Source of the DNA: Nibribacter koreensis
Lineage (GTDB): Bacteria > Bacteroidota > Bacteroidia > Cytophagales > Hymenobacteraceae
Reading direction: 5' to 3'
Assembly (NCBI RefSeq): GCF_039541795.1
Contig: NZ_BAABGX010000002.1
Coordinates: 7,808-71,807, forward strand
Length of the DNA: 64,000 nucleotides
Shown: one piece after another, positions 2,534-58,536 of the stretch
Position numbering within the stretch: position 1 is the first letter of the stretch
Layout: every line of letters begins with the position of its first letter
Position numbers and translations under genes: made by a program
The notes under the pieces: generated by a model
Seen by the model: only the letters and a program-made list of their open reading frames with translations
The model's database searches: none
What the model was told of the DNA's origin: nothing

Positions 2534-2902
2534 CTACAGGATGGTCAGCACATTCTGGGGCGGACGGCCAATCACGGCTTTGTCTCCGTTCACCACAATG
2601 GGGCGCTCCAGTAAGATGGGGTTTTCTACCAGTACTTGAATCCATTCGTCCTGCGTGAGGTGTTTGCCGGCGTACTGCTCTTTGTAAAGCATCTCTCCTT
2701 TCCTGATGATGTCTTCGGGGGCTAGTTGCAGTTTGGCCAATACGTCTTTTAACTCTTGCGCCGTGGGCGGATTAGTCAGGTAAGACACTACTTCAACGTC
2801 TTGTCCCGCGTTCTGGAGCAAGTCCAACGTCTCGCGGCTTTTACTGCATCTGTTGTTGTGGTAAATGGTGACCATGGCGGGATGGGTTTGGATGAAGGTC
2901 AA
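2534..2902 (-). CDS. ArsC/Spx-family protein (arsenate reductase-like, YffB type)
   Basis: 122 aa. The N-terminal 'IYHNNRCSKSRETLDLL' is the glutaredoxin-type ArsC-family active-site motif. Confidence 0.75.
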   Translation of the reverse strand: MTFIQTHPAMVTIYHNNRCSKSRETLDLLQNAGQDVEVVSYLTNPPTAQELKDVLAKLQLAPEDIIRKGEMLYKEQYAGKHLTQDEWIQVLVENPILLERPIVVNGDKAVIGRPPQNVLTIL

Positions 2903-2925
2903 AGATAAGGATTGTGTTGGATTCT

Positions 2926-2963
2926 CGTTTTTGGCGTGTTTTCTGGGAAACAGGCGGAAAACG
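2926..2963. repeat. 38-bp intergenic palindromic element (degenerate copy)
   Basis: cgtttttggcgtgttttctgggaaacaggcggaaaacg. It matches the family consensus but the two arms are imperfectly complementary. Confidence 0.7.
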
Positions 2964-2989
2964 CCGTTTTGATAGATGGCTGATTGTCA

Positions 2990-3745
2990 ATTGCTGATTG
3001 TTAAAGCATTCCCATCAGGACCGCCGTTGTTGGTGTTCTCACCAACTACCCGAACTGCTTCTCCAGTTGCCATTACTCTCTGGAAAAGACTTGGTGCACT
3101 TGCTTTGGCTGTTCCCTCGGTAATACCGTTTGTTCCGGTGCGAACTCACAGCTTTGTTGCATGGTCTCCGCTAAGCGCTCACGGCCGCGGGGCCTCGTCC
3201 TGGCCCTTCGCACTGCTGTTGTACTCTGGGCCTTTGGCCCCGCCTTTCAGGCGACGAAACAACAGAGGCGCTCAGGACCAAGACTGGTTCTGGTTCCAAT
3301 GCTGCTTAAGCCTGTTGGTTGGAGGTAAAGTCCGTCCCTGTCGCTGCAGAGTCATTCGTGCTGGCGCACGGCTGTAACTATCTGCTGTCCCGTGGGCATG
3401 GTTCAAGTCTTGGACTTGGACCCATGATGCAGGCAGTTTTCAACTGCCGTTGGCCTTCTGCCTAGTGATGCACATTGCTACTTTACCACGCATTGCGTCC
3501 CCCTCCGGAGGGGGTAGGGGGAGGACAAGTACTCCTTCAGACTCAGGACTCAGAACTCAGGACTAAACAAGTATCTTCTGCGCCAAGGACGGCTCCAACC
3601 GCAGACTACCCCCTTGAGGGTTGCCCAAACGGGAGTTTGAGGCACCGAGCGTAGCTCTAAGGGGGGTGTTTACACCAGCAGATAAAACTGACAGAAAGAG
3701 GCAATGGGCCCAAGACAAGGCAGTGCCGTTGTCTCTACAAAAAAG
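2990..3745 (+). repeat. Composite ~750-bp non-coding repeat, copy A
   Basis: About 90% identical to the reverse complement of 8690-9420. Its core also recurs at 13650-13990 and 50900-51430. ORF frames are not conserved between copies. Confidence 0.8.
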
Positions 3746-3894
3746 GCTCCCCTCCTGTTTTAGGAGAAGTTGGAGGTGGTAAAATCTCGATGTTGCATGC
3801 CAAAGACAAGGCAGCGCTTGGTCTCTACTTACTCAGCAATGCCTACCCCCTCATCCTAACCTTCTCCCTCAGGGAGAAGGGACTTGGGTCATTG

Positions 3895-3932
3895 CGTTTT
3901 TGGCCCGTTTTTCAGAAAATAAGCCAAAAACG
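3895..3932. repeat. 38-bp intergenic palindromic element (degenerate)
   Basis: gcgtttttggcccgtttttcagaaaataagccaaaaacg. Confidence 0.7.
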
Positions 3933-3996
3933 TAATAGTAGGCTGTTCATAAGATCCATAACCCAGTACTCAAAACTCAAGACTCAGGACTCAAAA

Positions 3997-5655
3997 CTAT
4001 TCCACCCGTTTGCTGGTCACGTAGAAGTTGGGGTCAACGGTTAGTTCGGCGGCGTTGCGGGAGACGGTGGCTTTCTTCCAGGTGCCGGCCACGGGTTTGA
4101 GCCATTTGGTTTTGCCACTTACTAGCACTTTGACGGGCATAGAGAAGGTGTCCAGGCAGTTGGTCCAGCGATATTCCAGGGTCTTGCCGTTGAGCTTGTA
4201 TTCCAGCACGGGGATGCGGGTGTCACGTAGGTACTGGTCAAAGAAGCCTTTTAAGTTATGGCCGCTTTTCTGGGCCAGGTAGTTCTCAATCTGGGCGCCG
4301 GTCACGGTCTGGTGGTAGAAGTCCTGGTTGAGGCCGCGCAGAATCAGGCGCCATTTCATGTCATTGCCCACCAACTGCCTGATCATGTGGAGCATATTGG
4401 CGCCTTTGGGGTACATGTCACCGGAGCCGGCGTAGTTGACATCATATTTGCCTACAATGGGACGGTCGTTTCTGATGCCTTTCCGGACGCCAATAATGTA
4501 GGCGCTGCTGGCTTCTTTGCCGTAATGGTAGTCTAAAAACAGGTTCTCTGAGTAAGACGTGAAGGCCTCGTGCACCCACATATCAGCTATGTCTTTATAG
4601 GTGATGTTGTTGGCGAACCACTCATGCCCGCTCTCATGGATGATGATGAAGTCAAACTTGAGTCCCCAGCCGGTTCCGCTTAAGTCACGACCCAGGTAGC
4701 CGTTCTGGTATTGGTTGCCGTACGTCACCGAACTCTGGTGCTCCATGCCCAGATACGGCACTTCTACCAGCTTGTAACTGTCTTCATAAAACGGATACGG
4801 CCCAAACCAATGCTCAAAGGCCTGCAACATGCGCGGCACGTCCTTGAACTGGGCTTTGGCCTTTTCCAGGTTCTCTGGCAAGACGTAGTAAATGCAATCC
4901 AAGGGGCCTTTCTCGCCGGGGTAGACTTCAGAGAAGGACACGTAATTGCCAATGTTAAAGTTGACGCCGTAGTTGTTGATGGGGTTGGTGACGGCCCAAT
5001 GGAAGGTTCTGGTGCTGTCTGCGTGTTCTTCAACCTTGCGCAGCCTTCCGTTAGAGACGTCTACCAGCGGCATGGGCACGTTCACCCGTATCATCATGCT
5101 GTCTGGTTCATCATACATGTGGTCTTTGTTGGGCCAGAAGAGGCTGGCGCCGTCGCCCTGCACCGAGGTGGCGATGAACGGATTTCCCTGCGTGTCTTGC
5201 TTCCAGGTGACGCCGCCGCTCCAGGGCGGGTTTACGCTCACCTGCGGTCTGCCGCTGTAATATACGTCTATGCAGTGCTGGGCGCCGGCCACCTGCGGCT
5301 GTTGCAGTTGAATAAACCAGGCGTTGCTGTCCTGGCGTACCACCAGGTTCTGGCCGTTCTGCGTGACGCGGTCAATGCGCATGGGCGCCTGCAAATCTAT
5401 CTGCATAGTTTGGTGCGGTTGCAAGACTTTGTAGCTGATCTTGTTTTGGCCCTGCAGGGTGCTGTCCTTAAGACTTACCTTGATGGACAAGTCATAGTGG
5501 GTCAAGTCCCACCAGGCGCGCTCTGGCGTGATGGAGCCGCGCAACGTGTCTTGCCGCGTGAAGGTGGGCGTGGTCTGGGCCTGGGCGCTAGGGACGGTGC
5601 CTGCCAGAAGCAAGAACAGCGCAAGACCTACGTGCCAAAATTGAGGGGTTTTCAT
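3997..5655 (-). CDS. M1-family zinc metallopeptidase (aminopeptidase N-like), secreted
   Basis: HEXXH motif in 'IIHESGHEWF' followed by a downstream glutamate in 'WVHEAF' (gluzincin pattern). Start chosen at MKTPQFWHVGLALFLLLAGTVPSAQA, which gives a signal peptide. The longer ORF to 5856 runs through a palindromic repeat. Confidence 0.75.
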   Translation of the reverse strand: MKTPQFWHVGLALFLLLAGTVPSAQAQTTPTFTRQDTLRGSITPERAWWDLTHYDLSIKVSLKDSTLQGQNKISYKVLQPHQTMQIDLQAPMRIDRVTQNGQNLVVRQDSNAWFIQLQQPQVAGAQHCIDVYYSGRPQVSVNPPWSGGVTWKQDTQGNPFIATSVQGDGASLFWPNKDHMYDEPDSMMIRVNVPMPLVDVSNGRLRKVEEHADSTRTFHWAVTNPINNYGVNFNIGNYVSFSEVYPGEKGPLDCIYYVLPENLEKAKAQFKDVPRMLQAFEHWFGPYPFYEDSYKLVEVPYLGMEHQSSVTYGNQYQNGYLGRDLSGTGWGLKFDFIIIHESGHEWFANNITYKDIADMWVHEAFTSYSENLFLDYHYGKEASSAYIIGVRKGIRNDRPIVGKYDVNYAGSGDMYPKGANMLHMIRQLVGNDMKWRLILRGLNQDFYHQTVTGAQIENYLAQKSGHNLKGFFDQYLRDTRIPVLEYKLNGKTLEYRWTNCLDTFSMPVKVLVSGKTKWLKPVAGTWKKATVSRNAAELTVDPNFYVTSKRVE

Positions 5656-5712
5656 AACAGTGATTTGGTTGAGAATAGAACGCGCGAAGCAGAAAGCGGT
5701 TGACGTGGTTTT

Positions 5713-5752
5713 CCGTTTTCGGGCTGAATTCTGGAAAACTGGCCGAAAACGC
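5713..5752. repeat. 38-bp intergenic palindromic element (degenerate)
   Basis: ccgttttcgggctgaattctggaaaactggccgaaaacgc. It lies between the convergent 3' ends of the M1 peptidase and the restriction-modification gene. Confidence 0.7.
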
Positions 5753-5767
5753 ATGAACCCCGGTTGT

Positions 5768-8527
5768 TTAGGCTTCTGGAACCACGGCGGCCTTTCTGGT
5801 TTTCTTGGGTTTCTCTTTGGCAAACAGACCGGCGGTGTACTGGGCATACAACTCAAACAGGAACTCCATGCGCTTGGCCTCGCTCACAAACGCCTGCGGA
5901 CGGTAACACAAATCTACGGCCTTGTCCAGGTCTTGGTGCGCCTTGACCAGTTTGGGCGGCATGGTGAGCGGGTCATACAAGTCTGCCAATGAACTGCCGG
6001 TAAACTCTGCCCGTACGTCCAGCACCTTCTGCGCGGCCACTTCTACGGCTTTGACCTGCTTCTCCGAAGGATTTTCTGGCCAAGGGAAGTTGTTGTAGAC
6101 GATGTCATTTGAATAACGGAAGCGACTTTCTAATCTTCCACAAACATTTTTTACCCAAGCCATATGCATTTTGGATGATAATATTCCAAAATGAAAAAAT
6201 GAATCAGTTTTAATAAAAGAGCAAAGATTGCTTGGAATCGTTTCTTTGTTTATAAATCCGATTGGAATATATCTTCGATTTTCAGAAGAAACTAAAGGGA
6301 TAATTATAGCATGCTCTGGATTATGCTTATCCCGAAAGGTAGTAGGAAAATTGGCCAAATTACGAGCCTGTGAATCAGGACTTTTTTCTCTTAGCTCTTT
6401 GACTTTTTTTACCCGGTCTAGAACATAAGGTAAATTCTTTAATTTAATTGGGTCTACATCAACTAGCCACAAGCACCATCTCGACTTACCATTTATAAAT
6501 TCTTCAGAACCTATAAATCTTCTAAAGTAATTTTCAGATAATGGCTCCTTTTGGATAAAATCTTCCTTTTCCTCATCATTAAAAATTAGATTTCCTCCAT
6601 CTATTGCTTTATTTCCTGCTTGCATTGGAAACACATTGCAAATTGGCTTCCCTCGTTTTGAGATTATAGTATCTTTCCCTTCGGTTAAGTAGGGGGTAAT
6701 ATTCATGGCTACATATTCATGAGGCTCTGAGTTGTAACTTTCATATTCATAAATAAACTTCTCATTCACATCGAAGTTGGCAAAACCAATAATCACCACA
6801 TGAACCGCGGCATTTCCTTTTGCTTCGTTCTTCCAGTTGAAGGTGCGGTGCGCGAAATGAATTTTAATCTTGTACCGATTAAATAACTCGTTCCAGAGAA
6901 TACCCACTTGCTCGCCTTGGGCAATAGAATTGGTAGACACAAAAGCAGTTTTAATCTTGGTGTCTTGCATGTACTGCGCGGCTTTTAAATACCAGGCGGC
7001 TACATAGTCTAAAACGCCAGCACCGTTCACGCCCGCAAAAACTTTCTCCATATCAGCTTTCTGCCCAGCGTTTTGGTTTGATTTGCCAATAAACGGCGGG
7101 TTGCCCAGAATGTAGGTGAGTTGGTTTTTGGGGATGACGGTTTCCCAGTCTAGTTGCAGGGCGTTTCCGTGGGTGATGTTGGCAGATTTCTTGAGCGGTA
7201 GGCGCGCAAAATACTGCCCGAACTCCTGACTGATGGCCATGTTCATCTGGTGGTCAATGAGCCACATGGCCACCTCGGCAATGCGCGCCGGAAACTCTTC
7301 GTACTCAATGCCATAGACCATGTCCACGTCCAGCCAGATAATTTCGCGCACATCCAGAATCATCTGCCCAGACTTGTTCATGGCCCGTAAAATCTCAATC
7401 TCCAGCAAACGGAGTTCGCGGTAGGTGATGATGAGGAAGTTGCCGCACCCGCAGGCCGGGTCCAGGAACTTGAGCGTGCTCAGCTTCTTATGGAATTCGG
7501 GGAGGCGGTTCTTATTGGTCTTTACGCTTTCAAACTCGCGCCAGAGCTCATCCAGAAACAGCGGCTTTATGAGCTTGAGGATGTTCTTCTCTGAAGTGTA
7601 GTGCGCGCCCAGGTTTCTACGCTCCTTGGGGTTCATGACGCTCTGGAACAGACTACCAAAAATTGCCGGCGAAATCTTGCTCCAGTCCAGGGCACAGCAG
7701 TTTAGCAGTTGCGTGCGCATTTTGCTGTCAAAGGCGGCCGGCGGCAAAGGCTCTTCAAACAGCTTTCCGTTCACGTAGGGGAACTGGTTCAGGTGCTCGT
7801 CTATGTTCTTGAGGCGCTTGTCTACGGGCGTGTTTAAGATGTAGAACAGCTGACTTAAATGCGCGGCCAGGTCAGAGCCGTCCTCACTGGTTTTCTGCTC
7901 AATGTAATCCTGGAAAAGGCGCTTGTCAAAGATGCTGGTGTCTTCAGAGAAGAGGCAGAAGAGAATGCGCACCAGGTACACCTCCAGCACGTGGCCCTCA
8001 TAGCCAATCTCCTGCAGGCGGTCATGCAGCTTGCCCATGCGTTCGGCGGCCAGAATGTTGACGGGGTCCTCAGACTTATAATGCTTGGTCTGGTAGCCCA
8101 GCAAAAACCCGAACAGCTTTACGTTCTTATACAGGTCCTGCAACAGAAACTCCTGCTGAGTGCCGTCCTCCAGATCATACAGCCTGAAGCGCTCAAAGTC
8201 ACTCACCAGAATGCACTTGGGCAGGTCATATTCCTTGAGTCCGGCAAAATAGTCTTTGGCCTGCGTGTAAGCCTTGTCCAGGTCCTTGCCCTTAGATTTC
8301 ATCTCTACCAGCAGCACGCCCTTCCAGAGCAGATCAATGAACCCGTCCCGTTCGCCCAGCTTCTTGACCTTGTGCTCAAACGTAGAAACGCGCTTACTGC
8401 TTATGCCAAACACGTTGAAGAACTCCACCAGAAAGGGCTTGGCGTCTGCCTCTTCACGGGCGGTGTCTTGCCATTCTTTGGAGAACCTGATGGCGCGGTC
8501 CTTTATCTCATTCCAGCTTAAAGCCAT
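5768..8527 (-). CDS. MmeI-family Type IIL (IIG) restriction-modification enzyme: fused endonuclease, N6-adenine methyltransferase and target-recognition domain
   Basis: 919 aa. N-terminus MALSWNEIKDRAIRFSKEWQ... The PD-(D/E)XK-like motif D-X9-E-X-K is present ('DLLWKGVLLVEMK'). Gamma-class methyltransferase motifs are 'FLDPACGCGNFL' (motif I) and 'ILGNPPFIGK' (motif IV). The long C-terminal region is consistent with a target-recognition domain. Architecture and length match MmeI. Confidence 0.85.
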   Translation of the reverse strand: MALSWNEIKDRAIRFSKEWQDTAREEADAKPFLVEFFNVFGISSKRVSTFEHKVKKLGERDGFIDLLWKGVLLVEMKSKGKDLDKAYTQAKDYFAGLKEYDLPKCILVSDFERFRLYDLEDGTQQEFLLQDLYKNVKLFGFLLGYQTKHYKSEDPVNILAAERMGKLHDRLQEIGYEGHVLEVYLVRILFCLFSEDTSIFDKRLFQDYIEQKTSEDGSDLAAHLSQLFYILNTPVDKRLKNIDEHLNQFPYVNGKLFEEPLPPAAFDSKMRTQLLNCCALDWSKISPAIFGSLFQSVMNPKERRNLGAHYTSEKNILKLIKPLFLDELWREFESVKTNKNRLPEFHKKLSTLKFLDPACGCGNFLIITYRELRLLEIEILRAMNKSGQMILDVREIIWLDVDMVYGIEYEEFPARIAEVAMWLIDHQMNMAISQEFGQYFARLPLKKSANITHGNALQLDWETVIPKNQLTYILGNPPFIGKSNQNAGQKADMEKVFAGVNGAGVLDYVAAWYLKAAQYMQDTKIKTAFVSTNSIAQGEQVGILWNELFNRYKIKIHFAHRTFNWKNEAKGNAAVHVVIIGFANFDVNEKFIYEYESYNSEPHEYVAMNITPYLTEGKDTIISKRGKPICNVFPMQAGNKAIDGGNLIFNDEEKEDFIQKEPLSENYFRRFIGSEEFINGKSRWCLWLVDVDPIKLKNLPYVLDRVKKVKELREKSPDSQARNLANFPTTFRDKHNPEHAIIIPLVSSENRRYIPIGFINKETIPSNLCSFIKTDSFFHFGILSSKMHMAWVKNVCGRLESRFRYSNDIVYNNFPWPENPSEKQVKAVEVAAQKVLDVRAEFTGSSLADLYDPLTMPPKLVKAHQDLDKAVDLCYRPQAFVSEAKRMEFLFELYAQYTAGLFAKEKPKKTRKAAVVPEA

Positions 8528-8599
8528 GGTGTGTTGCGTCTAGAAAGGGAAGGTAGGAAAATTCTATATACCCCGCCTACGTAGTTCCCGCAAGCCCAT

Positions 8600-8637
8600 C
8601 GTTTTTGGCCTGTTTTCTGGATTTCAGGCTGAAAACG
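8600..8637. repeat. 38-bp intergenic palindromic element
   Basis: cgtttttggcctgttttctggatttcaggctgaaaacg. Confidence 0.7.
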
Positions 8638-8689
8638 GGGGGTATAGTTAAGAGTTAAGAGTTATGAGTTAAGAGTTGGATGATGGTAG

Positions 8690-9420
8690 AGACCAGGCAC
8701 TGCCTTGTCTTGGGCGCATTGCCTTCTTCTGCTAGTTTTATCTGCTGGTGTAAACACCCCCCTTAGAGCTACGCTCGGTGCCTCAAACTTCCGTTTGGGC
8801 AACCCTCAAGGGGGAAGTCTGCGGTTATGAAAGGCTCATGGCGCAGACGCAACTTGTTTAGTCCTGAGTCATGAGTCATGAGTCTGAAGGCGCTCCTGTC
8901 CTCCCCCTACCCCCTCCGAAGGGGGACGGAATGCGTGTTAAAGTAGCAATGCCCGGGCAGTTGCAGACTGCGCTCGTCATGGATCCAAGTCAAAGACTTG
9001 AACCATGGCTACGGGAAAGGAGATAGTTACAGCCGTGCGCAGCACGCGTGACTCTGCAGCGACAGAGACCGCCATTATCTTCCATCAGCCAATCAACCAT
9101 CAAGCCCTTACAGGATTGGGACCAAAACCAGTCTTGGCTCTGAGCGCCTCTGTTGTTTCGTCGCCTGAAAGGCGGGGCCAAAGGCCCAGAGTACAACAGC
9201 AGTGCGAAGGGCCAGGACGAGGCCCCGCGGCCTTGAGCGCTTAGCAGACATAATGCAACAAGACTGGTAGTACGCACCGGAAAGAGCGGTCTTACTCAGG
9301 GAACTGCCAAATGCGTGCACCAAGGCATTGGCAAAAGTTATAATAGCTAGAGAAGCAGTTTGGGTCGTTGGTGAGAACACCAACAACGGCGTAAGTTGGT
9401 CCTATGCAACAACAACAACA
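8690..9420 (-). repeat. Composite ~750-bp non-coding repeat, copy B (inverted)
   Basis: Reverse complement of copy A (2990-3745) at about 90% identity. This includes the G/C-rich mini-palindromes at its distal end. Confidence 0.8.
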
Positions 9421-9437
9421 ACAACAACAACAACAAC
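9407..9437. repeat. (CAA)10 trinucleotide microsatellite
   Basis: caacaacaacaacaacaacaacaacaacaac. It produces a spurious poly-Cys ORF on the minus strand. Confidence 0.9.
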
Positions 9438-9813
9438 GGCGACAGACGGTAGCATAGACCATGCATACGCAAGGTGAGGCACATGCCTCAGGGGATTGGA
9501 AATCCCCGACAGAGTAGTTCGGGATTAGAAATCCCGAACAGCGTAGATCTCGAACAGCATAGCAGCGTAGCAGCAGAGACCAACCACGGCGGCGCAGCAG
9601 AGGCAAGTAGTATAGCAACTGGAGAGGCAATCTTAATCGTTGGTGAGGGCGCCAACCAAGGCAGGCTAGAATTGAGAACAGAGAAGAAGCAGACCCACCA
9701 ACTGGGATTCAGGCAGAGAGATAGTCAACCTAAATCGGAAGCAACAGAACTAATTTGCTTGCGGACCCAAGCGGACGCTGGCGCCATGTCAAACGCCTCA
9801 GGCAAGGCTTCCT

Positions 9814-9852
9814 CGCTTTTAGCCTGATTCCCAGAAAACAAGCTAAAAACGC
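9814..9852. repeat. 38-bp intergenic palindromic element (inverted-loop orientation)
   Basis: cgcttttagcctgattcccagaaaacaagctaaaaacgc. Confidence 0.7.
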
Positions 9853-11573: not shown

Positions 11574-13181
11574 TTAATCCAAACCGCCTTTACGGGTGGG
11601 TTTGTTCTGCGTAGGCCAAGTGCCCGGCTGCCCTGTTCTAGGGTTTACCGGCAAGACAATGCGCTCTCTGGATGTTTTGGCTGGATCTTCGCTGGCCATG
11701 TAGGCTAAGATGGCGGTTAAGATGGCATTGCTGCGCACATCATCAAACACAATCTTGTCATAGGTGTCGCGGTTGGTATGCCAGGTGTAGGTGCCGTATG
11801 ACCAGTTCAAAGAGCTCAGGGAAAATGCCGGGGCGCCCGCCGCTACAAATGAGGCATGGTCTGACCCGCCCCCGCCCGGCGTACCCGGGAAGTTGGTTTC
11901 AATAGGCTGACGGATAGACGCCGGTACCGCAGACAGCCAGCGGCCAATGTAATCATACGAGTGCAGAAAGCCCTGACCCGAGATGTTCACCACGCGGCCC
12001 GTACCGTTGTCCTGGTTGAAGACCGCCTGGATGTTCTTCACAATCTCTGGGTGATCTTCTACAAACGCGCGTGAGCCGTTCAAGCCCTGCTCCTCACTGC
12101 CCCAGTGGCCTACCAGGATGGTGCGCTTAGGGTTAGGATAGAGTTTCTTTAAGATGCGCATGGCCTCCATCATGACAATGGTACCAGTCCCGTTGTCTGT
12201 AGCGCCAGAACCGCCGTCCCAAGAGTCAAAGTGCGCTGACAGGATCACGTACTCATCAGGCTTCTCAGAGCCTTTGATTTCTGCAATGGTGTTGAAGGCC
12301 GGCACTACGCCTAATTCCTTCGCATTCACCTTGATGTTGATTTTAGGCTTGTCGCCGGCTTCTACCATGCGGTACAGCATGCCGTAGTCTTCCAGGGCAA
12401 TGTCTACCGTAGGGATTTTCTTGGTAAAGGCATTGAAAATCTTGTTCACGCCAAACCCCGCTGACCAGTTGGACATGACAATACCTGCGGCGCCGGCTTT
12501 CTCCAGCACCGCGGGCAAGGTGCGGGTGGTATAACCAGTTTTGGCCAGTTTGTTGCGCCAGGCTTCGGTTTGCGCCGTGCGTTGGGCTTTCATTTTGTCA
12601 AAAGAGGCTGCGGTGGCAAATTCCTGCCAGTTATAGTCTGGTCTACCAGTGGGCTGGTACATAGAGATCATGACCAGTTTGCCTTTCACATTTGGCAACC
12701 ATTGTAAGAAAGAAACGGAGTCGGTGATTTCTGCCGGCAGGGTAATCAGTTCGGCGGTGACGCCTTTGCCTTTGGTGGCCGGGCTCCAGGCCAGCTGCAT
12801 GCCCTCTAAGGATTTTACCCTAGGTGCTACCATCTCTATTTGTGACGTGCCTCTTTCCCAGCCACGCCATTCGCCCCATTTCTCGTTGCGGGCCATGATG
12901 CCCCAGCCTTTGTACTTCTCAATGGCCCAGTCGTTGGCCTGCTTCATTTGGGGCGAGCCCACCAGACGCGGGCCAATTTTATCCAAAAGTTCATAGGCCA
13001 GGCGCTCTAGCTGCGAATTCTCGGTGGCTTCCTTCACAATGGCTTCCACCATCGGGTTTTTAGGTGCTTGCGTCTGCGCGTTGTTGGGCGTTTGGGCCTG
13101 CCCTACCTGGGCAGACAAGAGCAAGGCCGCCAGCAGGGCCTTGGGCAGGTGATGGGTATAGCGTTTCATCATAGTTTTCAT
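11574..13181 (-). CDS. M28-family zinc peptidase with PA domain, secreted
   Basis: Signal peptide MKTMMKRYTHHLPKALLAALLLSAQVGQAQ. The motif 'LSAHFDSWDGGSGATDNGTGTIVMMEAMRIL' is the M28 metal-binding signature. Confidence 0.8.
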   Translation of the reverse strand: MKTMMKRYTHHLPKALLAALLLSAQVGQAQTPNNAQTQAPKNPMVEAIVKEATENSQLERLAYELLDKIGPRLVGSPQMKQANDWAIEKYKGWGIMARNEKWGEWRGWERGTSQIEMVAPRVKSLEGMQLAWSPATKGKGVTAELITLPAEITDSVSFLQWLPNVKGKLVMISMYQPTGRPDYNWQEFATAASFDKMKAQRTAQTEAWRNKLAKTGYTTRTLPAVLEKAGAAGIVMSNWSAGFGVNKIFNAFTKKIPTVDIALEDYGMLYRMVEAGDKPKINIKVNAKELGVVPAFNTIAEIKGSEKPDEYVILSAHFDSWDGGSGATDNGTGTIVMMEAMRILKKLYPNPKRTILVGHWGSEEQGLNGSRAFVEDHPEIVKNIQAVFNQDNGTGRVVNISGQGFLHSYDYIGRWLSAVPASIRQPIETNFPGTPGGGGSDHASFVAAGAPAFSLSSLNWSYGTYTWHTNRDTYDKIVFDDVRSNAILTAILAYMASEDPAKTSRERIVLPVNPRTGQPGTWPTQNKPTRKGGLD

Positions 13182-13588: not shown

Positions 13589-13649
13589 TTTGGTTTTTTT
13601 GTTAGGAATTTCTGAGGTGGAGGGCAAGATTATTTTTAGCTGTTGTTGG

Positions 13650-14200
13650 TGTTCTCACCAACGACCAAGATTGCCTCTCTAACTGCTGTAGTGCATTTGT
13701 GCACTTCCGTTGGCTAATCCCTAGGTAATACCTTGTGCTCCGGTGCGTACTATCTTTCTTGTTGCATTTTGTCCGCTAAGCGCTCACGGCCGCGGGGCCT
13801 CGTCTTGGCCCTTCGCACTGCTGTTGTACTCTGGGCCTTTGGCCCCGCCTTTCAGGCGACGAAACAACAGAGGCGCTCAGAACCAAGACTGGTTTCGGTC
13901 CCTTTCTGCTGAGACTAGATGATAGATTCAGGTTTTTGCATGTAAGTTCAGCTGCTGTCGCTGCAGAGTCACTCGTGCTGCGCACGGTTTGCTTTATCTT
14001 GGTTCACGAGAGCGGCCGACTGCCGGTTGTAGCGTCGCTCCGCGGAACGACGTGGTCCAACGCAGCATTGGCCGCGCTATCCCGGTTGGCACTGTTCTCT
14101 GAAACAGAAGATTCATTCATTCCCAGAAAGAGGTTTCTATTCTGCCAGAGGCGTTCCCGTTACATGGGGGCACGTCGTTCCGCGGAACGACGTTACGTTA
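13650..14200 (+). repeat. Composite repeat, copy C (partial, diverged 3' half)
   Basis: The core 'ccgctaagcgctcacggccgcggggcctcgtcttggccc...ggcgacgaaacaacagaggcgctcag' is shared with copies A, B and D. The tail carries two 20-bp palindromes, cgtcg(c/t)tccgcggaacgacg, at 14031-14054 and 14174-14193. Confidence 0.65.
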
Positions 14201-14208
14201 ACAGGTGT

Positions 14209-14246
14209 CGTTTTTAGCTCCATTCCCGGAAATCAGCCCGAAAATG
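14209..14246. repeat. 38-bp intergenic palindromic element (degenerate)
   Basis: cgtttttagctccattcccggaaatcagcccgaaaatg. Confidence 0.6.
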
Positions 14247-16274: not shown

Positions 16275-16328
16275 CCCATAATCGTTTTTGGCCTCTTTTG
16301 ATTAAAAGAGGCCAAAAACGATTATGGG
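16275..16328. repeat. Palindromic element, extended near-perfect 54-bp palindrome
   Basis: cccataatcgtttttggcctcttttgattaaaagaggccaaaaacgattatggg. Confidence 0.8.
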
Positions 16329-17918: not shown

Positions 17919-17962
17919 TAAAAAAGGCCATAGTTGACCTTATCTTCTATCACTTTACATAG

Positions 17963-17979
17963 TACTTTGCGTTACAAAG
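17963..17979. promoter_or_regulatory. Operator-like palindrome ACTTTG-cgtta-CAAAGT (site 2)
   Basis: Second copy of the motif, embedded in the repeated 30-mer catagtactttgYgttacaaagttaat. Confidence 0.4.
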
Positions 17980-18266
17980 TTAATCTCACCAAAAAGAAAT
18001 CAAAACTTTTATCCGTGTTTATTTACAACGCAGTCCTGCTTCGTGAATAAACAATAGCTATCATAGGCCTAATGAAGTCTATACAGCTGACTCTCTAAAA
18101 GGATTGTGCAAAGAATTATCCTACCTGAGTTATTATTGGTTGAATTACGCCAACATGCTCATCTTTCCACAAGAAGAGATAGGTGGTTACTAAAGTTATT
18201 TTTCTAGATTTAAAGAATGGCTTATAGAAAGCCGGCTGTACTCCAACCTCCACACACCAACCTGAC

Positions 18267-21048: not shown

Positions 21049-22116
21049 TTATGCAGCTTTGGCCAGGTATCTCAAGTGTGAAATGTGAGAAGCAATGGCC
21101 GTTCTTGTTTTTTCGTACTCAATATACGGAATCTTATACTCTGCGCAAGTCTGTTTGATGATTTTGCTAATCTCAGGGTAATGCACGTGTGAGATTTTTG
21201 GGAACAGATGGTGCTCAATCTGGAAGTTCAACCCGCCCGTCAACCAAGAAACCACTTTGTTTTTAGTGGCAAAATTGGCCGTGGTGCGCAGTTGGTGAAT
21301 GGCCCATTCATCTTCAATTTTGTTGGTTTCAACAGTGGCCACCGGGAAATGCGCGTCTTCTACGGTATGCGCCAACTGGAACACAATGCTCAAGACTAAG
21401 CCGGTAAACATGCCATACACCAAGAAACCTACCAGCCAAGGCAAGAACCCAACCATGTAAATAGGCACCACCACAAACATGATAAAGTGTTGTACTTTGA
21501 ACGCCCAAAACGAGATATGGTCGGCGCGCTTCATTTTCTTTAGTGGAATGTCGCCCACTTTCTGAGTAAAGTACTTCACATAGTCTGTGAAGAAGATCCA
21601 GTAGATGTACAGCATGGCATACGCACCCCAGAAGTAAAAATGCTGGTATTTGTGGATGCCCAAATGCTTTTGATTCTCACAAAGACGCAAGAACGGACGT
21701 GCGTCCAGGTCATCGTCTACGCCGTCAATGTTGGTGTACGTGTGGTGAATGACGTTGTGCTTGGTGGTCCACATGAAAATGTTGGCACCCATCACGTTCA
21801 AGGAAAGCCCGGCCAACTCGTTCAGCCATTTCTTCTTGCTGAAGCTACCATGACCACCGTCATGCATCACGTTAAAACCAATGGCGGCCGTTACGCCGCC
21901 CAGCAACACGCACTCTAATAGCGCCACCCACACGTTTGGGGTGAAGAACACCAGGTGCACGTACAATAAGATTAAGCTGGAGATGAGGATGATCGCTTTG
22001 GTGTAAAGCTTATAGTTACCAGTGGGAGAAGTACCACGATCGGTGAAATACTGGTTAATTCTGTTTTTCAGCTCTGCGTGAAAGCCAGTGGGTTGCAAAA
22101 ATCTTGGCGTAGCCAT
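21049..22116 (-). CDS. Membrane fatty-acid desaturase family protein
   Basis: Three histidine boxes: 'HDGGHGSF', 'HNVIHHTYTN' and 'HHLFPKISHVHY'. Several TM helices. Confidence 0.85.
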   Translation of the reverse strand: MATPRFLQPTGFHAELKNRINQYFTDRGTSPTGNYKLYTKAIILISSLILLYVHLVFFTPNVWVALLECVLLGGVTAAIGFNVMHDGGHGSFSKKKWLNELAGLSLNVMGANIFMWTTKHNVIHHTYTNIDGVDDDLDARPFLRLCENQKHLGIHKYQHFYFWGAYAMLYIYWIFFTDYVKYFTQKVGDIPLKKMKRADHISFWAFKVQHFIMFVVVPIYMVGFLPWLVGFLVYGMFTGLVLSIVFQLAHTVEDAHFPVATVETNKIEDEWAIHQLRTTANFATKNKVVSWLTGGLNFQIEHHLFPKISHVHYPEISKIIKQTCAEYKIPYIEYEKTRTAIASHISHLRYLAKAA

Positions 22117-23568: not shown

Positions 23569-26500
23569 TTAATTCTCTCCTATCATCAACTTGCTCTCTG
23601 CTTTCTTTTCTCCCAGCACTTGCTTTATTCCTTCGAGCCCCTCAGAAATGTTCTCCATCTGCGCCAGTACCTGCCCTACCTGGTTGCCCGCTCCGCCAAA
23701 ACCGTTGAGCTTGTTGTTGCGCACAAAGGTGACTTTGATGTCTTCCCAGCGCTGGATTTCCTCTGGTGTGGCAATGTTAATGAGCTGTTTGAACTTGAGC
23801 ATGTTGGCCTCGGCGCCGGTGGTCAAGGTCTGGGACTCTGACTGGTAATGGGACAAGATAAGCGTGTGCAGTTCCTGGTCGTTCATGATGGGCATCACCT
23901 TCTCGGCGAGCTTGTTCATGTTGCGATACGAGCCCTGCATCTTGAACGGCGGCTCAGTGCGGTACTCGTCTGCCTGGGCGGCAGATTTAATGTACTCCAG
24001 GTTCACCTTCAGGATCACGTCCCGTATGGTCAGCAGTTTCTTGAGCACCGACACGTACTCGTTGATTTCTTCGGCGGTGTGGCTGGCTTCCAGTTCCAAG
24101 CCTTCGCCGTTGCCCGTTTCCGCTAGCTTCACCAGTGCATACACGTCTTTCTGGCTCTTGGCAGAGAGTTTAGCCAGCACGGTGTTAGACGTCATGGCAT
24201 TCTCCAGATAGCTTAGCTTGAACACGTCTTCGGTGTCGCCCAGAATGTCACCCAGGTTGTAAATATCGGCGCGGTTGGCCAGCATGTCAGGGATTCTGAA
24301 CTTGTCGCCGGTCTCAGTGTACGGGTTACCAGCCATGACTACGCACACTTTCTTGCCTCTGAAGTCATACGTCTTGCTTCGGCCTTTGTACACGCCCTCA
24401 ATCTTGCGCTGGGCATCACACAGGGAGATGAACTTCTGCAAGAACTCAGGATTACAGTGCTGGATGTCGTCCAGGTAAATCATGACATTGTCGCCCATCT
24501 CAAAGGACAGGTTCAGCTTTTCCAGCTCCTCGCGGGCGGCGGCATTGGGGGCTTCGGTTGGGTCAAGCGCCGTGACCTGGTGCCCGATAGCCGGTCCGTT
24601 GATCTTCATGAAGATGATGCCCAGACGGTTGGCAATGTACTCCATGAGCGTGGTCTTGCCGTATCCCGGAGGCGACAAGAGCAAGAGCATGCCCATGAGG
24701 TCGGTGCGCTTGGTTTCGCCGGCTGTGCCCATCTGCTTGGCCAGGTTGGCGCCAATAAGCGGCAGGTACACCTGGTCAATGAGTTTGTTGCGTACAAACG
24801 AAGACATGACCCGAGGCTTGAACTCCTGCAGGCGCAGTTCCTCTTCAAACGTGACGGTCATCTGGTGCTTGAGCGCATGGAATTCTTTAAACTGGCTCAC
24901 CACCTGCGTCTCATACTGGCCCAACTTCTGCTGGAAGCCATGGAAATGCAACGGGTATTGCTGTTCCTGCAACAACGGGTGACTGCCTTGCATGCCTGCT
25001 AAGGTCTCGCGCAGATTTGCGTGCACCACTTGCTTGGGCTTTAACTCCTGCAAGAGCAACAACACCGCCGCCTCGGGCACATATTCTTCTGCGTCTGCTT
25101 GATTAGTTTGAGTGGCAAAGGCTTTCAGCCAATGTGCCATCAGTTCATATTGCTCTACTTTGTTCTCTTCTAAGGCCCCGGCAGATGCCTCAAACATGGC
25201 CCAGGCCTTTTTCTCTGTGAGGTACTGATGGAAGTTCTGCACCAGCTCGGCGGCCAGTGCACTCGTCACAAACTGGTCACCGCGGGTAAGCTCAAAGAAA
25301 AGATACTCGCCGGCCGCGGTGGCATTGGCTTCTGGTAATAAACCGGTCTCCTGCTGTAAAGCCTGTAGCTCACGTTGTAAATCTGCCTTGATGTTGTCAA
25401 ACTGATGCGTTTCTGGGAACACCTGCAAAATGGCGCCCACGCCTTTGAGCTGATGATGGAACAGTTGTTTTTGGCCTTCTTTCATGAAAACAGCCCAAAA
25501 ACAACGGGCGGCGGCGCGGTCAACGGCTGTGTAGCGGAGCAAGTCTGCGGTTTTAAACAAACGCACCAAGGTACTTAAAATTAGCACCGCGTCATGGTCG
25601 TGCACGCCTTTCAAATACCCTTCATTAAAGCGCACGGACATGAATTTCTGCACGTATTCCGTCAGCTCCTCCGCTTTAAGTTTATGCAGTTCATCCAGGG
25701 TGAATAGACGTAGACTTCCTTCTGCGGCCTCTCCCGTAGCAGACGAATTTTTAGCTAGTTGCGCGGCTTGCAGAATCTGGAAGGCCAAGTATTCGGCACG
25801 ATAGACTTGGTTGTTCTCTGAGATAAGCGACTGCTCCCAAACGGGTCTGTAACTCAGGAAACGCTCATCGGTGATTTTCTCAAAGAAGCTGGTGCCGGTG
25901 AGGTGGTAGTACATGGCGTCCTCGCGGTGCACAATGCTCAGTTCCAGCGGCTGGGTATTCACCGTGAAATGGTGCGTCCCGAACTTGAGCACGTTCTGCC
26001 CGTCCACGAACAGCTCGCTTTTGTCTTTGAGCTGGCGTACGGCGTCTTCGCGTAACGTTTTCAGGCGGCTCTGGATGGCATCTGCCTTCACGGTATCGCC
26101 CATGGCCAAGAGCTCGTCTACGGTGGTGCGCACCTTCTCCAGCATTAAGTCAGACGCGAAGTAGCCGTTAATCTCAGCCACGGTGTCTAGCTTGCTGATG
26201 CGGCTTTGTACGGCTTTGAGAATGCGGTCGGCGGCTTGTTGCAGGGTGGTGGCGCGTTTGTTGCGGGCTTCCTGCAGGGCTACTTTCTTGCTTTCAAACG
26301 CAGAGTAAATCTCTTCGCGCTTGTCTGCAATGATTTCTAAAAAGGCGTCAAACTCAGAGAAGCGCCCTTCCAGCTCCTCCAACTGCACCATGAGCTTGGT
26401 CAGGTACTCTTCGCACTTCTGAGGCGTGTCACAGACGTCCAAAAAGTTGATGACGCTCTGACTGATGAGCTTGATTTGGGCATTAAATTCGGCCTGACCT

Positions 26501-28554
26501 TCAGAGCTCAGCAACTCTTGGCGTTTGCGTTTAAGGGTAGCTTTGGTTTTGTTAAAGGAGGCGTAGATGGTAGAAATGGCGTCTACAATGCGCGTGGTTT
26601 GGGTAGCGTCCTCAATCTTGAGGTTGCTTACAATCTCAATGAGCATTTCCAGCTCACTGCTCACGCCCGCAATCTCTTTCTCGGTGGCATCTGCTTCTAC
26701 CACTTTGGCAATCTTGTCAATGCCCTGCGTGATCTCCCCTACCCGTTTTTCATAGGGCACCAGGGCATCTGGCTTGAGCAAGAAGGCCACCGTCTGGTTG
26801 GCAATCTCCTGACTGAAGCCCTGCAACTGCGCCTCATAGTCTTCAATGCGCGTCAAGTCTGCGTAGCGCAGTTCCTTTAAAGAAATGACCTCGCCGCGCA
26901 CGGCACGCAGATCAGCCAGGGACTTGACAAAGTCATTGATGTGCCCGTTGCTCTGGACCTTCAGCTTGGATATCAAGTCACCAGCCAGGCCCAACACCTG
27001 GTCTACCTGCGCTTGTGTGCTTTTGCGTATGCTGATGACTTTCTCAAACTCCTCCACCGCGGCGGTGGCCGTCTGCCGGATGGCACCTACTGGTTCTGCC
27101 AAACCGAACGTCTCTTTCTGGTTCAGCCAGTGATACGAGTCCAGCAGGTCTGTAGTAATTTTAATGAGGTCCAGGTACAGGTTGTCATAGGAATCCTCTT
27201 TGTTGACCAGCGTCAGAATCTCGGTGCACTCGGCCATGGCCTGCACAATCTCCTTGTTGCCTATCTTATATAGGTAAGAGTCCTTGGTAACTGGTATGCT
27301 GAAGTTAGAGCCAATGTACGGCGTCTGCCAGATCTGGAGCGCATGGTGCTTTTTGGGTTCTTCGTCTGCCCTGAAATAGCATAACTCGCCGTTCTCATAA
27401 ATGGCGTAGCCGTGGCAGATGATGGGGCTTTCAATCTTCTGGGTGATCAGGTTGTAGCTCAACAGCAGGTACACGCCCGAATCCTTGTTGTAGAAGACGT
27501 ACAGGAAATCTTCGCCGTTGGGCGAGGTTATGCGCTTCTCAAACAACATCTCCTGCAAGCCGTTGTCAAAAGACTTGAACTCGCCGGTTTGCAGGTAATA
27601 GCCATACGCGTAAATGATGCCTTGGCTTTCTGGCAAAAACACGCAACAGTCCTGGATGGCGTCAATGCGGCGCGCTTCCTTCAGTTTGGCGTTGTAGACA
27701 ATGTAGCGGTAGGCATTCTCGCGGTACGGCCTGATCTTGAGCAGAATGAGGTTACCGATGATGGAATAATACAGCTCTGAGTCGTCCAGGGTCTGGTCTT
27801 TGTCCTCCACCGGCTCTGAGTAAATGCCCTGGCCCGAGTCAGTGTTGTCCTCTACCTTGATGGTAAGGTCGCCGTTGATGGTTTCTACAAAGACTTTGTC
27901 CTCAATGGAGATGTGCGGGTGCTTGCCTTTGCGCTGGGCCTCGCGGGGTACGCGCTTCCAGGCGAAGTCGTGCTGATTGGGGAACTGGTACTCATGGTCT
28001 GAGCGGTTGTCCAGATAGGTGAGCGTACCGCCCTGAATGGCCCATTTAAAGGTCTTGATGTCATTAACGCCTTTGCCAATCCTGAACACCATGAACAGGT
28101 GCACGCCCATGACGGCAAACTTGACAAACTGCGTGTTCTTGTAGTATTTGTACAGCTTCTGGAATTCGTCCTGAAAGGCGGCGTTCTGGATGAGGTCCAG
28201 TGGCTGGTGATGGAACTGGTGCCCTTCATAAGAATAGACACTGAACACGTCGCTCAGCTCTATTTCTGTTTTTAAGCCCAGGTGCACGTTGTAGCCAAAC
28301 AGCAGGAAATTTCCCACCGGCACCATGTCATAGGGCACGCAGTTGTGCTCCGTAGTGACACGCTCGGTGGCCAGCAACTTGGTCTCAATCGCTCCGAAGA
28401 CCTCTTTCCGTTCCTGGTTTAGCTGGTCCAGCAGACCGCGCAACTCCCCGCCACTTTTGGCCAGACGGTTACGCAGAATCTCATAGGTGCCGCCTTCTAG
28501 TTGAACTGGATTGGTTGTGGAAGAGGTATTATTTTCAGAAGTAATAGTGCTCAT
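23569..28554 (-). CDS. Giant multidomain protein (1661 aa) with a C-terminal AAA+ ATPase module of the MoxR/McrB/dynein (AAA_5) type, an N-terminal beta-rich domain and a long central helical region
   Basis: Uninterrupted 4986-nt ORF. Walker A 'LLLLSPPGYGKTT' lies near residue 1235. Walker B 'VMIYLDDIQHCNPE'. Sensor 1 'VVMAGNPYTE'. An Arg-finger-like motif 'RIPDMLANRADIY'. The N-terminal roughly 450 aa are beta-strand rich; the central roughly 700 aa are helical or coiled-coil. Confidence 0.8.
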   Translation of the reverse strand: MSTITSENNTSSTTNPVQLEGGTYEILRNRLAKSGGELRGLLDQLNQERKEVFGAIETKLLATERVTTEHNCVPYDMVPVGNFLLFGYNVHLGLKTEIELSDVFSVYSYEGHQFHHQPLDLIQNAAFQDEFQKLYKYYKNTQFVKFAVMGVHLFMVFRIGKGVNDIKTFKWAIQGGTLTYLDNRSDHEYQFPNQHDFAWKRVPREAQRKGKHPHISIEDKVFVETINGDLTIKVEDNTDSGQGIYSEPVEDKDQTLDDSELYYSIIGNLILLKIRPYRENAYRYIVYNAKLKEARRIDAIQDCCVFLPESQGIIYAYGYYLQTGEFKSFDNGLQEMLFEKRITSPNGEDFLYVFYNKDSGVYLLLSYNLITQKIESPIICHGYAIYENGELCYFRADEEPKKHHALQIWQTPYIGSNFSIPVTKDSYLYKIGNKEIVQAMAECTEILTLVNKEDSYDNLYLDLIKITTDLLDSYHWLNQKETFGLAEPVGAIRQTATAAVEEFEKVISIRKSTQAQVDQVLGLAGDLISKLKVQSNGHINDFVKSLADLRAVRGEVISLKELRYADLTRIEDYEAQLQGFSQEIANQTVAFLLKPDALVPYEKRVGEITQGIDKIAKVVEADATEKEIAGVSSELEMLIEIVSNLKIEDATQTTRIVDAISTIYASFNKTKATLKRKRQELLSSEGQAEFNAQIKLISQSVINFLDVCDTPQKCEEYLTKLMVQLEELEGRFSEFDAFLEIIADKREEIYSAFESKKVALQEARNKRATTLQQAADRILKAVQSRISKLDTVAEINGYFASDLMLEKVRTTVDELLAMGDTVKADAIQSRLKTLREDAVRQLKDKSELFVDGQNVLKFGTHHFTVNTQPLELSIVHREDAMYYHLTGTSFFEKITDERFLSYRPVWEQSLISENNQVYRAEYLAFQILQAAQLAKNSSATGEAAEGSLRLFTLDELHKLKAEELTEYVQKFMSVRFNEGYLKGVHDHDAVLILSTLVRLFKTADLLRYTAVDRAAARCFWAVFMKEGQKQLFHHQLKGVGAILQVFPETHQFDNIKADLQRELQALQQETGLLPEANATAAGEYLFFELTRGDQFVTSALAAELVQNFHQYLTEKKAWAMFEASAGALEENKVEQYELMAHWLKAFATQTNQADAEEYVPEAAVLLLLQELKPKQVVHANLRETLAGMQGSHPLLQEQQYPLHFHGFQQKLGQYETQVVSQFKEFHALKHQMTVTFEEELRLQEFKPRVMSSFVRNKLIDQVYLPLIGANLAKQMGTAGETKRTDLMGMLLLLSPPGYGKTTLMEYIANRLGIIFMKINGPAIGHQVTALDPTEAPNAAAREELEKLNLSFEMGDNVMIYLDDIQHCNPEFLQKFISLCDAQRKIEGVYKGRSKTYDFRGKKVCVVMAGNPYTETGDKFRIPDMLANRADIYNLGDILGDTEDVFKLSYLENAMTSNTVLAKLSAKSQKDVYALVKLAETGNGEGLELEASHTAEEINEYVSVLKKLLTIRDVILKVNLEYIKSAAQADEYRTEPPFKMQGSYRNMNKLAEKVMPIMNDQELHTLILSHYQSESQTLTTGAEANMLKFKQLINIATPEEIQRWEDIKVTFVRNNKLNGFGGAGNQVGQVLAQMENISEGLEGIKQVLGEKKAESKLMIGEN

Positions 28555-36591: not shown

Positions 36592-36630
36592 CCGTTTTTG
36601 GCCTGTTTCCTGGAAAAGAGGCCAAAAACG
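36592..36630. repeat. 38-bp intergenic palindromic element
   Basis: ccgtttttggcctgtttcctggaaaagaggccaaaaacg. Confidence 0.7.
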
Positions 36631-36704
36631 AGTTGGAGTTGCACTTAAATCCCACTTCAACTCTTATCTTCACTTTTCAACTTATCAGCCTTTAGGCCTA
36701 CGCC

Positions 36705-50727: not shown

Positions 50728-50771
50728 ATGCGTTTTTGGCCTGTTTTCCAGAAAATAGGCCAAAAACGCAT
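50728..50771. repeat. Palindromic element, extended 44-bp copy (inverted-loop orientation)
   Basis: atgcgtttttggcctgttttccagaaaataggccaaaaacgcat. Confidence 0.8.
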
Positions 50772-50899
50772 TTTCAATTGTCTATTGGTAAGGTGGCTTG
50801 TTGGTTTTTAGTTTGCTTTTTGTGGTTGATGGTTTGGTCATCCACAAACAAGGTTGTCTTTCCAATTGAGACGTCTCTTATTGTTGGTATTCTCGCCAA

Positions 50900-51430: not shown

Positions 51431-51603
51431 AACGAGTAGCGTACGGCAGGGCCTGCGAGCGTCTGCGCCAGGAAACACGCTATACACCCTTACTACTGCA
51501 CGGGGTAGGTGGGTCTGGGTAATGGGTAAAATCTTATCTCCGGAGACATTAGGTTTTACGCAGAGCGACGCTACGAATCATGGAGAGACAACAAATACTG
51601 CAT

Positions 51604-51644
51604 CTCGTTTTTGCCTTGTTTTCTAGGAAATAGCCAAAAAACGG
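51604..51644. repeat. 38-bp intergenic palindromic element (degenerate)
   Basis: ctcgtttttgccttgttttctaggaaatagccaaaaaacgg. Confidence 0.6.
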
Positions 51645-58494: not shown

Positions 58495-58536
58495 CCCGTT
58501 TTTGGCCTGTTTTCTGGAAAACAGGCCAAAAACGGG
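58495..58536. repeat. 38-bp intergenic palindromic element, perfect consensus copy
   Basis: cccgtttttggcctgttttctggaaaacaggccaaaaacggg. Confidence 0.85.

Follow-up and report, generated by a model that had tools for sequence, protein, structure and literature searches.

The ERIC/IRU, Correia, RUP and BOX sequences are MITE-like bacterial repeats that fold when transcribed and carry terminal inverted repeats and, mostly, short target duplications; selfish intergenic repeats normally conserve their ends. HEARO and the omega RNAs associated with IscB and TnpB are structured RNAs that belong to elements of the IS200/IS605 type; they are often present in many copies, some of which are ORF-less. 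To our knowledge, repeat families of Bacteroidota beyond gut Bacteroides are almost undescribed, and a full-text literature search returned no relevant paper on repeats of this kind, or on RNA motifs, from Hymenobacteraceae or Rufibacter. The BIMEs of E. coli and the NIMEs of Neisseria are mosaics of REP or dRS3 palindromes and other short motifs, and REPs end in a GTAG or CGTC tag (PMC3733652). REPINs are non-autonomous palindromic repeats that are mobilised by RAYTs, persist vertically and have long been conserved (PMC3116915, PMC5581495).

We analysed a repeat in 64 kb of Nibribacter koreensis DNA (hereafter the window), which a first-pass annotation had proposed to be either a non-autonomous mobile element of the MITE or SINE kind or a multi-copy structured RNA. 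N. koreensis is a soil bacterium of the Hymenobacteraceae (Bacteroidota), and the M28 peptidase (11574-13181) and J-domain protein (83-1117) of the window match this species at 100% identity. We call the repeat E, its best-conserved part core K, a separate repeat family that follows E in two copies module C, and an abundant palindrome of the window REP38. E resembles BIMEs and NIMEs in being intergenic and non-coding, in consisting of separable modules in varying order, in lying amid an abundant palindrome and in varying in presence between relatives; it differs from them in its much longer cargo (~560-870 bp) with a ~160-nt core that has a conserved long-range fold, and REP38 has neither the GTAG/CGTC tag of REPs nor a linked cognate RAYT. 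With ERIC, Correia, RUP and BOX it shares its size class, its multiple copies, an intergenic position often at gene 3' ends, a richness in hairpins and the existence of short and long variants; as in those families, a mini-element (found in Rufibacter) comprises the two ends without the interior, and copies act as recombination substrates. However, terminal inverted repeats and target duplications were not found in E, and those families are conserved most at their ends, whereas E is conserved most in its internal core.

HEARO and omega RNAs offer a precedent for a structured multi-copy non-coding element that is both RNA and mobile DNA and has ORF-less intergenic copies. Unlike them, E has no Rfam match to HEARO or IS605-orfB, no IscB, TnpB or Y1-transposase ORF adjoins any of the nine copies that we compared, and no variable guide-like segment abuts a fixed end of E. 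REPINs share with E the character of vertically persistent, non-autonomous palindromic repeats, and a RAYT gene is present in N. ruber; E is, however, not a simple inverted REP doublet, and that RAYT has ~125-bp palindromes of its own. E is built as a mosaic in the manner of BIMEs, and its internal core is conserved, pairing included, between genera, which is unusual for selfish intergenic repeats. Should the core be RNA, it would be a candidate for a new class of RNA and might serve as the handle of an undescribed mobility system.

Copies of the element in the window

Self-BLAST of the window recovered the repeat in both orientations at essentially the places given by the first-pass annotation. 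Nucleotides 3022-3738 matched 9391-8686 (82.2% over 732 nt, 727 bits, E=0), 3027-3566 matched 50881-51432 (84.8% over 554 nt, E=8e-179) and 3023-3371 matched 13639-13987 (77.8% over 361 nt, E=3e-77), so that the repetition is far beyond chance. Separate repeat detection in the window recovered the same families, and a profile search (nhmmer) placed the copies at 3015-3579, 9399-8844, 50870-51444 and 13628-14016. The count of four copies, given earlier as three full and one partial, holds, but only copies 1 and 2 span ~720 bp, because copy 4 is without the last ~150 bp (module C); the partial copy, formerly drawn from 13650 to 14200, is real but ends after ~380 bp, near position 14016. The genes flanking the copies are mutually unrelated: they encode an ArsC-like protein, an M1 peptidase, an MmeI-type restriction-modification enzyme, a histidine kinase, an M28 peptidase, a Crp-like regulator, a cation-diffusion transporter and an endonuclease/phosphatase-family protein. 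The coordinates of these and other features are collected in Table 1.

Table 1. Positions of element copies, their parts and neighbouring features in the window
Feature	Position	Strand	Remarks
Copy 1, E and module C	3022-3738	+	self-BLAST query region 2701-4100
Copy 1, E part	3022-3585	+	5' hairpin, variable linker, K, second conserved block, hairpins, G/C tail, heptads
Copy 1, core K	3145-3308	+	covariance-model match of 179.8 bits, identity profile, covariation
Copy 1, G/C tail	3499-3530
Copy 1, GACTCAG heptads	3540-3564
Copy 1, module C	3597-3738	+	separate repeat family
Copy 2, E and module C	8686-9391	-	inverted relative to copy 1; core K 9270-9107
Copy 3	13639-14016	+	truncated, ends after second conserved block; core K 13750-13913
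Copy 4, complete E without module C	50881-51445	+	core K 50998-51161
Diverged extra fragment of E 5' end (fifth, fragmentary)	9597-9667	-	hairpin GTTGGCGCCCTCACCAAC and ~50 nt, upstream of copy 2; nhmmer E=8e-7
REP38 left of copy 1	2925-2964
Other REP38 near copies	3894-3933, 8599-8638, 9814-9852, 14208-14245, 50730-50769, 51605-51643
Further REP38 examples	16282-16321, 36592-36631, 58496-58535
REARRANGEMENT: segment between inverted copies 1 and 2	3739-8685		~5 kb; M1 peptidase 3997-5856, MmeI-type enzyme 5768-8527
MmeI-family type IIG restriction-modification gene	5768-8527	-	complete, all five MmeI domains

Identity between copies had been put at about 90%. Over whole copies we measured 78-85%, distributed very unevenly along the element: a 113-nt stretch (3176-3288) was 94-100% identical among the four window copies and contained a 75-nt run with zero differences, whereas most other 30-nt bins were 47-77% identical. 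In the alignment of copies 1 and 2, the tract 3597-3727 was 95% identical to 8696-8826, against 82-88% for the rest.

The motif GTTGGTGnnnnCACCAAC had been taken for an inverted motif flanking the element. It is instead a single hairpin, GTTGGTG..CACCAAC, confined to the 5' end of each copy (3029-3046, 9384-9367 and 13645-13662, with a degenerate form at 50883), and the 'ag' and 'tt' variants listed for it are merely its two orientations. One extra GTTGGTGnnnnCACCAAC hairpin, at 9639-9656, is part of the fifth, fragmentary 5' end. Short tandem repeats lie near the copies at 3540-3564, 3968-3998, 8646-8677, 8860-8884 and 9407-9437; they comprise the heptads GACTCAG, ACTCAAA and AGTTAAG and a perfect (CAA)10/(GTT)10 microsatellite immediately upstream of copy 2.

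Modular organization of the element

E is ~560 bp long and consists, in order, of the 5' hairpin GCCGTTGTTGGTGTTCTCACCAAC, a variable linker, K, a second conserved block (CTGTCGCTGCAGAGTC...GCGCACGG), two hairpins (GGTTCAAGTC/GACTTGGACC and GGCAGTT/AACTGCC), the G/C tail GTCCCCCTCCGGAGGGGGTAGGGGGAGGAC and the GACTCAG heptads. Module C, of ~140 nt, follows the 3' end of E in copies 1 and 2 and occurs there in a shortened form in an N. ruber locus (L073).

E is a mosaic of modules that are found separately elsewhere. In R. radiotolerans (L065), K stands alone as ~150-170 nt at 21164-21336 and 18358-18187, module C stands alone at 18110-18040, and in a mini-element without K (17882-17771) a stretch of 45 nt joins the 5' hairpin to the G/C tail. 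Module C is also found alone in N. ruber (L001 13480-13572), where it lies between two REP38 palindromes.

Internal hairpins, which the first-pass annotation had reported, are borne out both in E and in the fold of K, each with compensatory pairs; the local hairpins of E outside K have 7 such pairs (vs 2.7±1.2). A long-range helix CCGGUGCG/CGCACGG across E was considered and rejected: it is invariant except in the Nibribacter-like contig L002, where it is broken without compensation, and a local hairpin CGUGC..GCACG is favoured.

Smaller repeats also recur in these spacers. An intergenic module (~83% identical) is present at 3804-3931 and 20627-20504 and adjoins REP38 at both places, and the hairpin AAGACAAGGCAGYGC..GGTCTCTAC recurs at 3710-3738, 3799-3828 and 8715-8686. 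A second family of small palindromes, GGGATTnCnAATCCC, is common to Nibribacter and Rufibacter and is clustered in the window at 9500-9545 and in L065 at 17930-18000 and 21340-21470.

Conserved fold of core K

We aligned K from eight sequences: the four window copies, one each from L002 and N. ruber, and two from Rufibacter. Two blocks were invariant in all eight, (A/G)GCGCTCA(C/A)GGCCGCG(G/A)GGCC and AGGCGCTCAG, on either side of a variable middle, and K contains two invariant GCGCTCA motifs. These blocks are identical between genera whose orthologous proteins share only 44-80% identity, and K is ~100% identical in copies whose flanks differ by 15-50%. Its G+C content is 58-69%, against ~50% for the genome.

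In the predicted consensus structure, K begins with a small 5' hairpin, after which comes a long irregular stem whose far end is a junction bearing two small hairpins. The stem would be built of CGUCYUGG/CCARGAC, then CGC/GCG and CU/AG, then CUGUUGU/ACAACAG. The long-range helix CGUCYUGG/CCARGAC shows three distinct compensatory states, with the forms GUCUUGG/CCAAGAC, GUCCUGG/CCAGGAC, GUCUUU/AAAGAC and GCCUU/AAGGC, and the inner helix is swapped for CUUGCGGCC/GGCCACAAG in one Rufibacter copy. As apical hairpin, the four N. koreensis copies all have GGGCC/GGCCC, and L002 and the two N. ruber copies have GGGAC/GUCCC; such species-specific variants of K are common to the copies within one species.

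Over the alignment, 91.5% of cells were paired and 11 of the 40 pairs had double-sided changes. Shuffled alignments gave 3.4±1.4 compensatory pairs, none of 500 reaching 11, and controls in which the partners were slid by 1-3 columns gave 2-5 pairs. Since the sequences represent only about four independent lineages, these statistics are modest and supportive only; judged by covariation across those lineages, pairing in K is conserved.

The folded form of K may be RNA or single-stranded DNA. Pairs of K with G-U cells are about as numerous as those with A-C cells, so that neither strand is favoured, and the consensus folding energies of the two strands are similar; the single-sequence folding z-score was -5.8 for the minus strand vs -2.3. 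Around K, no conserved Bacteroidetes-type promoter (TTTG...TAnnTTTG) or terminator was found at a fixed position. The earlier suggestion of a multi-copy structured RNA is thus supported as to structure, by compensatory changes in the core across Nibribacter and Rufibacter, but not by any consistent promoter, terminator or strand signal.

Several specific readings of K were set aside on inspection by eye. Pairing of its loops with REP38, in the manner of a bridge RNA, would rest on a 7-nt match that is lost in the N. ruber-type K, although REP38-like palindromes persist in N. ruber. The helices or core motifs needed for an HDV-like, hammerhead or twister ribozyme are not kept in the Rufibacter copies, and a small minus-strand ORF starting at ATG(C/A)AACAA beside K stops after 5-31 codons at differing places in each copy.

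Coding capacity, known RNA families and mobile-element hallmarks

As the first-pass annotation had held, the copies share no conserved reading frame: they are offset by indels of 1, 11 and 13 nt, stop-free frames differ from copy to copy, and the invariant 75 nt show no variation of the third-position or synonymous type. These features support the element being non-coding. Rfam at gathering score gave no match anywhere in the window; with the threshold relaxed to E<=10 for copy 1 and the Rufibacter locus, only chance-level matches to unrelated families appeared, so that no known RNA family explains the repeat; the families without a match include group I and II introns, HEARO, IS605-orfB and ribozymes. 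ARAGORN found no tRNA- or tmRNA-like gene in the window and Rfam no tRNA match. Viral contigs and PLSDB plasmids contained no match to the element.

E is small, non-coding and multi-copy, as a MITE would be (560-720 bp, no conserved frame, four copies in 64 kb). Terminal inverted repeats are absent, in that the 5' end, GCCGTTGTTGGTG..., is not an inverted copy of either 3' end (the heptads or the end of module C). No short direct repeats were seen at the boundaries of copies 1-4 or L002, where the diverged intergenic flanks preclude base-level mapping of the junctions. By its lack of terminal inverted repeats, E fails a defining test of a MITE. A SINE assignment calls for a tRNA-like or polymerase-III-type head and a partner reverse transcriptase, and neither was seen with ARAGORN, Rfam or inspection of the neighbouring genes. 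No transposase, integrase or reverse transcriptase is encoded in the window or beside any of the nine copies, and neither transposase homology nor a conserved frame marks E as a fragment of a protein-coding IS. Assignment to a MITE- or SINE-like family is not supported. E does combine abundant REP38 with other modules in varying order, as REP/BIME mosaics do, but no cognate RAYT flanked by the same palindrome was found in the window, and the only RAYT seen, in N. ruber, has a different palindrome beside it. Like structured RNAs in general, it has covariation-backed structure, in K and in other E hairpins, across about four lineages.

Distribution among relatives and turnover of sites

Related DNA was gathered through orthologues of the window proteins. 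It comprised loci from N. ruber (L001, L073), a Nibribacter-like metagenome contig (L002), Rufibacter sp. DG15C (L072), R. radiotolerans (L065) and five other Rufibacter lineages (L064, L067-L071, L074-L075). In ~327 kb of Hymenobacteraceae DNA, the K covariance model matched nothing beyond the copies already known except a single further K in N. ruber (L073 2452-2621, 158.6 bits), which belongs to an extra copy at 2367-2876 between GH92 and amino-acid permease genes. No E or K was found in ~110 kb from the five other Rufibacter lineages. Core-pattern scans of genome contigs (0 hits, then 5) and metagenome contigs (56) gave none that matched the element beyond the pattern (nhmmer best E 0.08), the hits lying in unrelated, mostly G+C-rich organisms; these scans missed the copies known from N. 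ruber CP047897 and from JGI contig Ga0613709_000220, both of which match the patterns. On our best reading, E is lineage-specific and occurs in the Nibribacter/Rufibacter group.

The sites of E are not conserved between species. In N. ruber and L002, a copy of E separates the fatty-acid desaturase gene from the S9-peptidase gene; the corresponding spacer of the window contains other modules and no K. The spacer between the transporter and endonuclease genes, which holds copy 4 in the window, measures 60 nt in Rufibacter sp. DG15C and contains one REP38, whereas in the window it comprises a REP38, ~870 bp with copy 4 among them, and another REP38; divergence of the flanks prevents the junctions of this ~870-bp extra segment from being mapped. 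The element is absent from the copy 3 site in N. ruber. The spacer between the histidine-kinase and M1-peptidase genes holds one REP38 in L002 and a REP38-module C-REP38 arrangement in N. ruber. Truncated copies also occur (copy 3 and L001). The supposed mobility of the element is indirectly supported by orthologous sites that are filled in one species and empty in another and by its patchy presence, but no insertion junction, terminal inverted repeat or partner transposase was found.

A block at 83-2902, with genes for a J-domain protein (HPD motif; 83-1117), CsbD and an ArsC-like protein, is conserved in Nibribacter and Rufibacter, and in R. radiotolerans it is bracketed by two inverted copies of K. 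Copy 1 and a Rufibacter copy (R2) occupy equivalent positions beside this block. The idea that K is an ancient syntenic gene there was nevertheless dismissed, since the block occurs without K in N. ruber and R. roseus; the neighbourhood is a variable spot rather than an ancient gene locus.

REP38 palindromes and the N. ruber RAYT

REP38 is a 38-bp perfect palindrome, CGTTTTTGGCCTGTTTTCTGGAAAACAGGCCAAAAACG, with 26 copies in the window, in almost every intergenic spacer, and it is common in relatives (N. ruber and Rufibacter spp.). It has no GTAG or CGTC end tag. Every copy of E is set among REP38 copies, and every K or E is followed by a REP38 within ~220 nt; as the distance from REP38 to the element ranges from 22 to 423 nt, there is no fixed junction between the two. 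A REP38-like palindrome at 25466-25502 (E=7e-8) lies inside a 1661-aa ORF (23569-28554) whose orthologue has DUF3686/AAA domains, and could represent an intragenic REP.

A gene for a REP-associated tyrosine transposase (RAYT; NF047646, 99.3 bits) is present in N. ruber at L073 14098-14628. The gene is flanked on both sides by REPIN-like palindromes of ~125 bp (L073 13950-14074 and 14681-14808), with a third copy at L073 4563-4731, and none of these occurs in the N. koreensis window. Mobilisation of E by this RAYT through REP38 is not supported: with a different flanking palindrome that is absent from the window, the enzyme cannot be tied to REP38 or to E.

Possible nature of the element

E has the behaviour of an intergenic element that is mobile or unstable, and it fits no described family. 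To the reading that it is a lineage-specific, non-coding, non-autonomous and modular intergenic element, with a structured core under selection, we give about an even chance. E (~560 bp, with the 140-bp module C in two copies) would have spread to, or been lost from, intergenic sites since the species diverged. It may move, or have moved, by means of a trans-acting function that E does not itself encode, and K could be the part recognised by that function or by the host. Selection would keep K while the linkers decay, and the 5' hairpin, G/C tail, heptads, module C and REP38 would be separable pieces that recombine. Given a core that is ~100% identical and a remainder that is 15-50% different, selection on every copy (that is, a host function) or gene conversion fits at least as well as selfish spread. 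As the main alternative, we find it possible, though not probable, that K, or all of E, represents paralogous structured ncRNA genes, for a trans-acting RNA or the RNA of a ribonucleoprotein. Such genes would be gained through duplication and also lost, and the REP38 hairpin downstream of them would act as the 3' end or as a stabiliser. Strong local conservation with compensatory pairing, the long-range helix included, argues for such genes, as do the blocks that stay identical between genera despite the divergence of orthologous proteins, a core ~100% identical although its flanks have diverged by 20-50%, the REP38 that follows every K and the high G+C content. They are harder to reconcile with the missing fixed promoter and terminator, the equal standing of the two strands in G-U vs A-C counts and folding energies, the toleration of truncated copies, the absence of the element from syntenic regions of close relatives and the lack of an Rfam family. 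RNA genes and a mobile element are not exclusive, HEARO-type RNAs being both, and an RNA of this kind could itself be part of a mobile element, as HEARO/omega-type RNAs are. K may also be a new structured RNA class of the Hymenobacteraceae, either a scaffold or recognition RNA of a mobile system that is still undescribed, as that of the HEARO/omega RNAs was at one time, or a self-processing RNA, for which the 560-bp element would be the vehicle and the core of each copy would be kept by selection; this we likewise find possible but not probable.

The repeat might also be a passive by-product of recombination and duplication among REP38 palindromes, a functionless mosaic like BIMEs and NIMEs in which gene conversion keeps the core uniform. 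The 26 REP38 in 64 kb that bracket the copies, the two REP38 at the filled site vs one at the empty site, the differing orders and combinations of modules and the 95% tract shared by copies 1 and 2 (3597-3727 vs 8696-8826 within an alignment of 82-88%), which resembles a conversion tract, would all suit this account. We nevertheless think it improbable: conversion inside one genome does not account for blocks shared unchanged by Nibribacter and Rufibacter or for compensatory changes by which pairing is maintained, and the variable distance between REP38 and the element leaves no fixed junction. An origin of the copies by decay of a protein-coding gene or insertion sequence seems very improbable indeed. 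Each copy has long stop-free stretches in several frames (e.g., ORF 2976-3377), but these frames differ between copies that are separated by the indels noted above, the best-conserved 75 nt show no third-position variation at all, the frame through K meets stop codons in both Rufibacter copies (by eye), and no transposase domain was found nearby. Pure recombination debris and decayed coding sequence are both unlikely, and an element with a selected core remains our preferred interpretation.

Inversion of a 5-kb segment between copies 1 and 2

Whatever their function, the copies seem to reshape the chromosome: the inverted pair of copies 1 and 2 probably flipped a 5-kb block that carries a restriction-modification gene. 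In six related loci (L001, L002, L065, L066, L070 and L071), the M1 peptidase gene is opposite in strand to the M28 peptidase gene, and it is convergent with the histidine kinase gene wherever the latter is present. In the window, the genes for the M1 peptidase, the histidine kinase and the M28 peptidase (11574-13181) all lie on one strand. Copies 1 (+) and 2 (-) form the exact limits of the flipped block, and reversing the inversion between them restores the arrangement common to the six loci. From this gene order, we infer that the inversion probably arose by homologous recombination between the two copies, and the 95%-identical tract 3597-3727/8696-8826 could be an associated conversion tract.

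The slot of the MmeI-family gene within this block is occupied by a different, 1267-aa type IIG enzyme in N. ruber and by none in L002; with contents that differ in this way, it is a variable defence spot.
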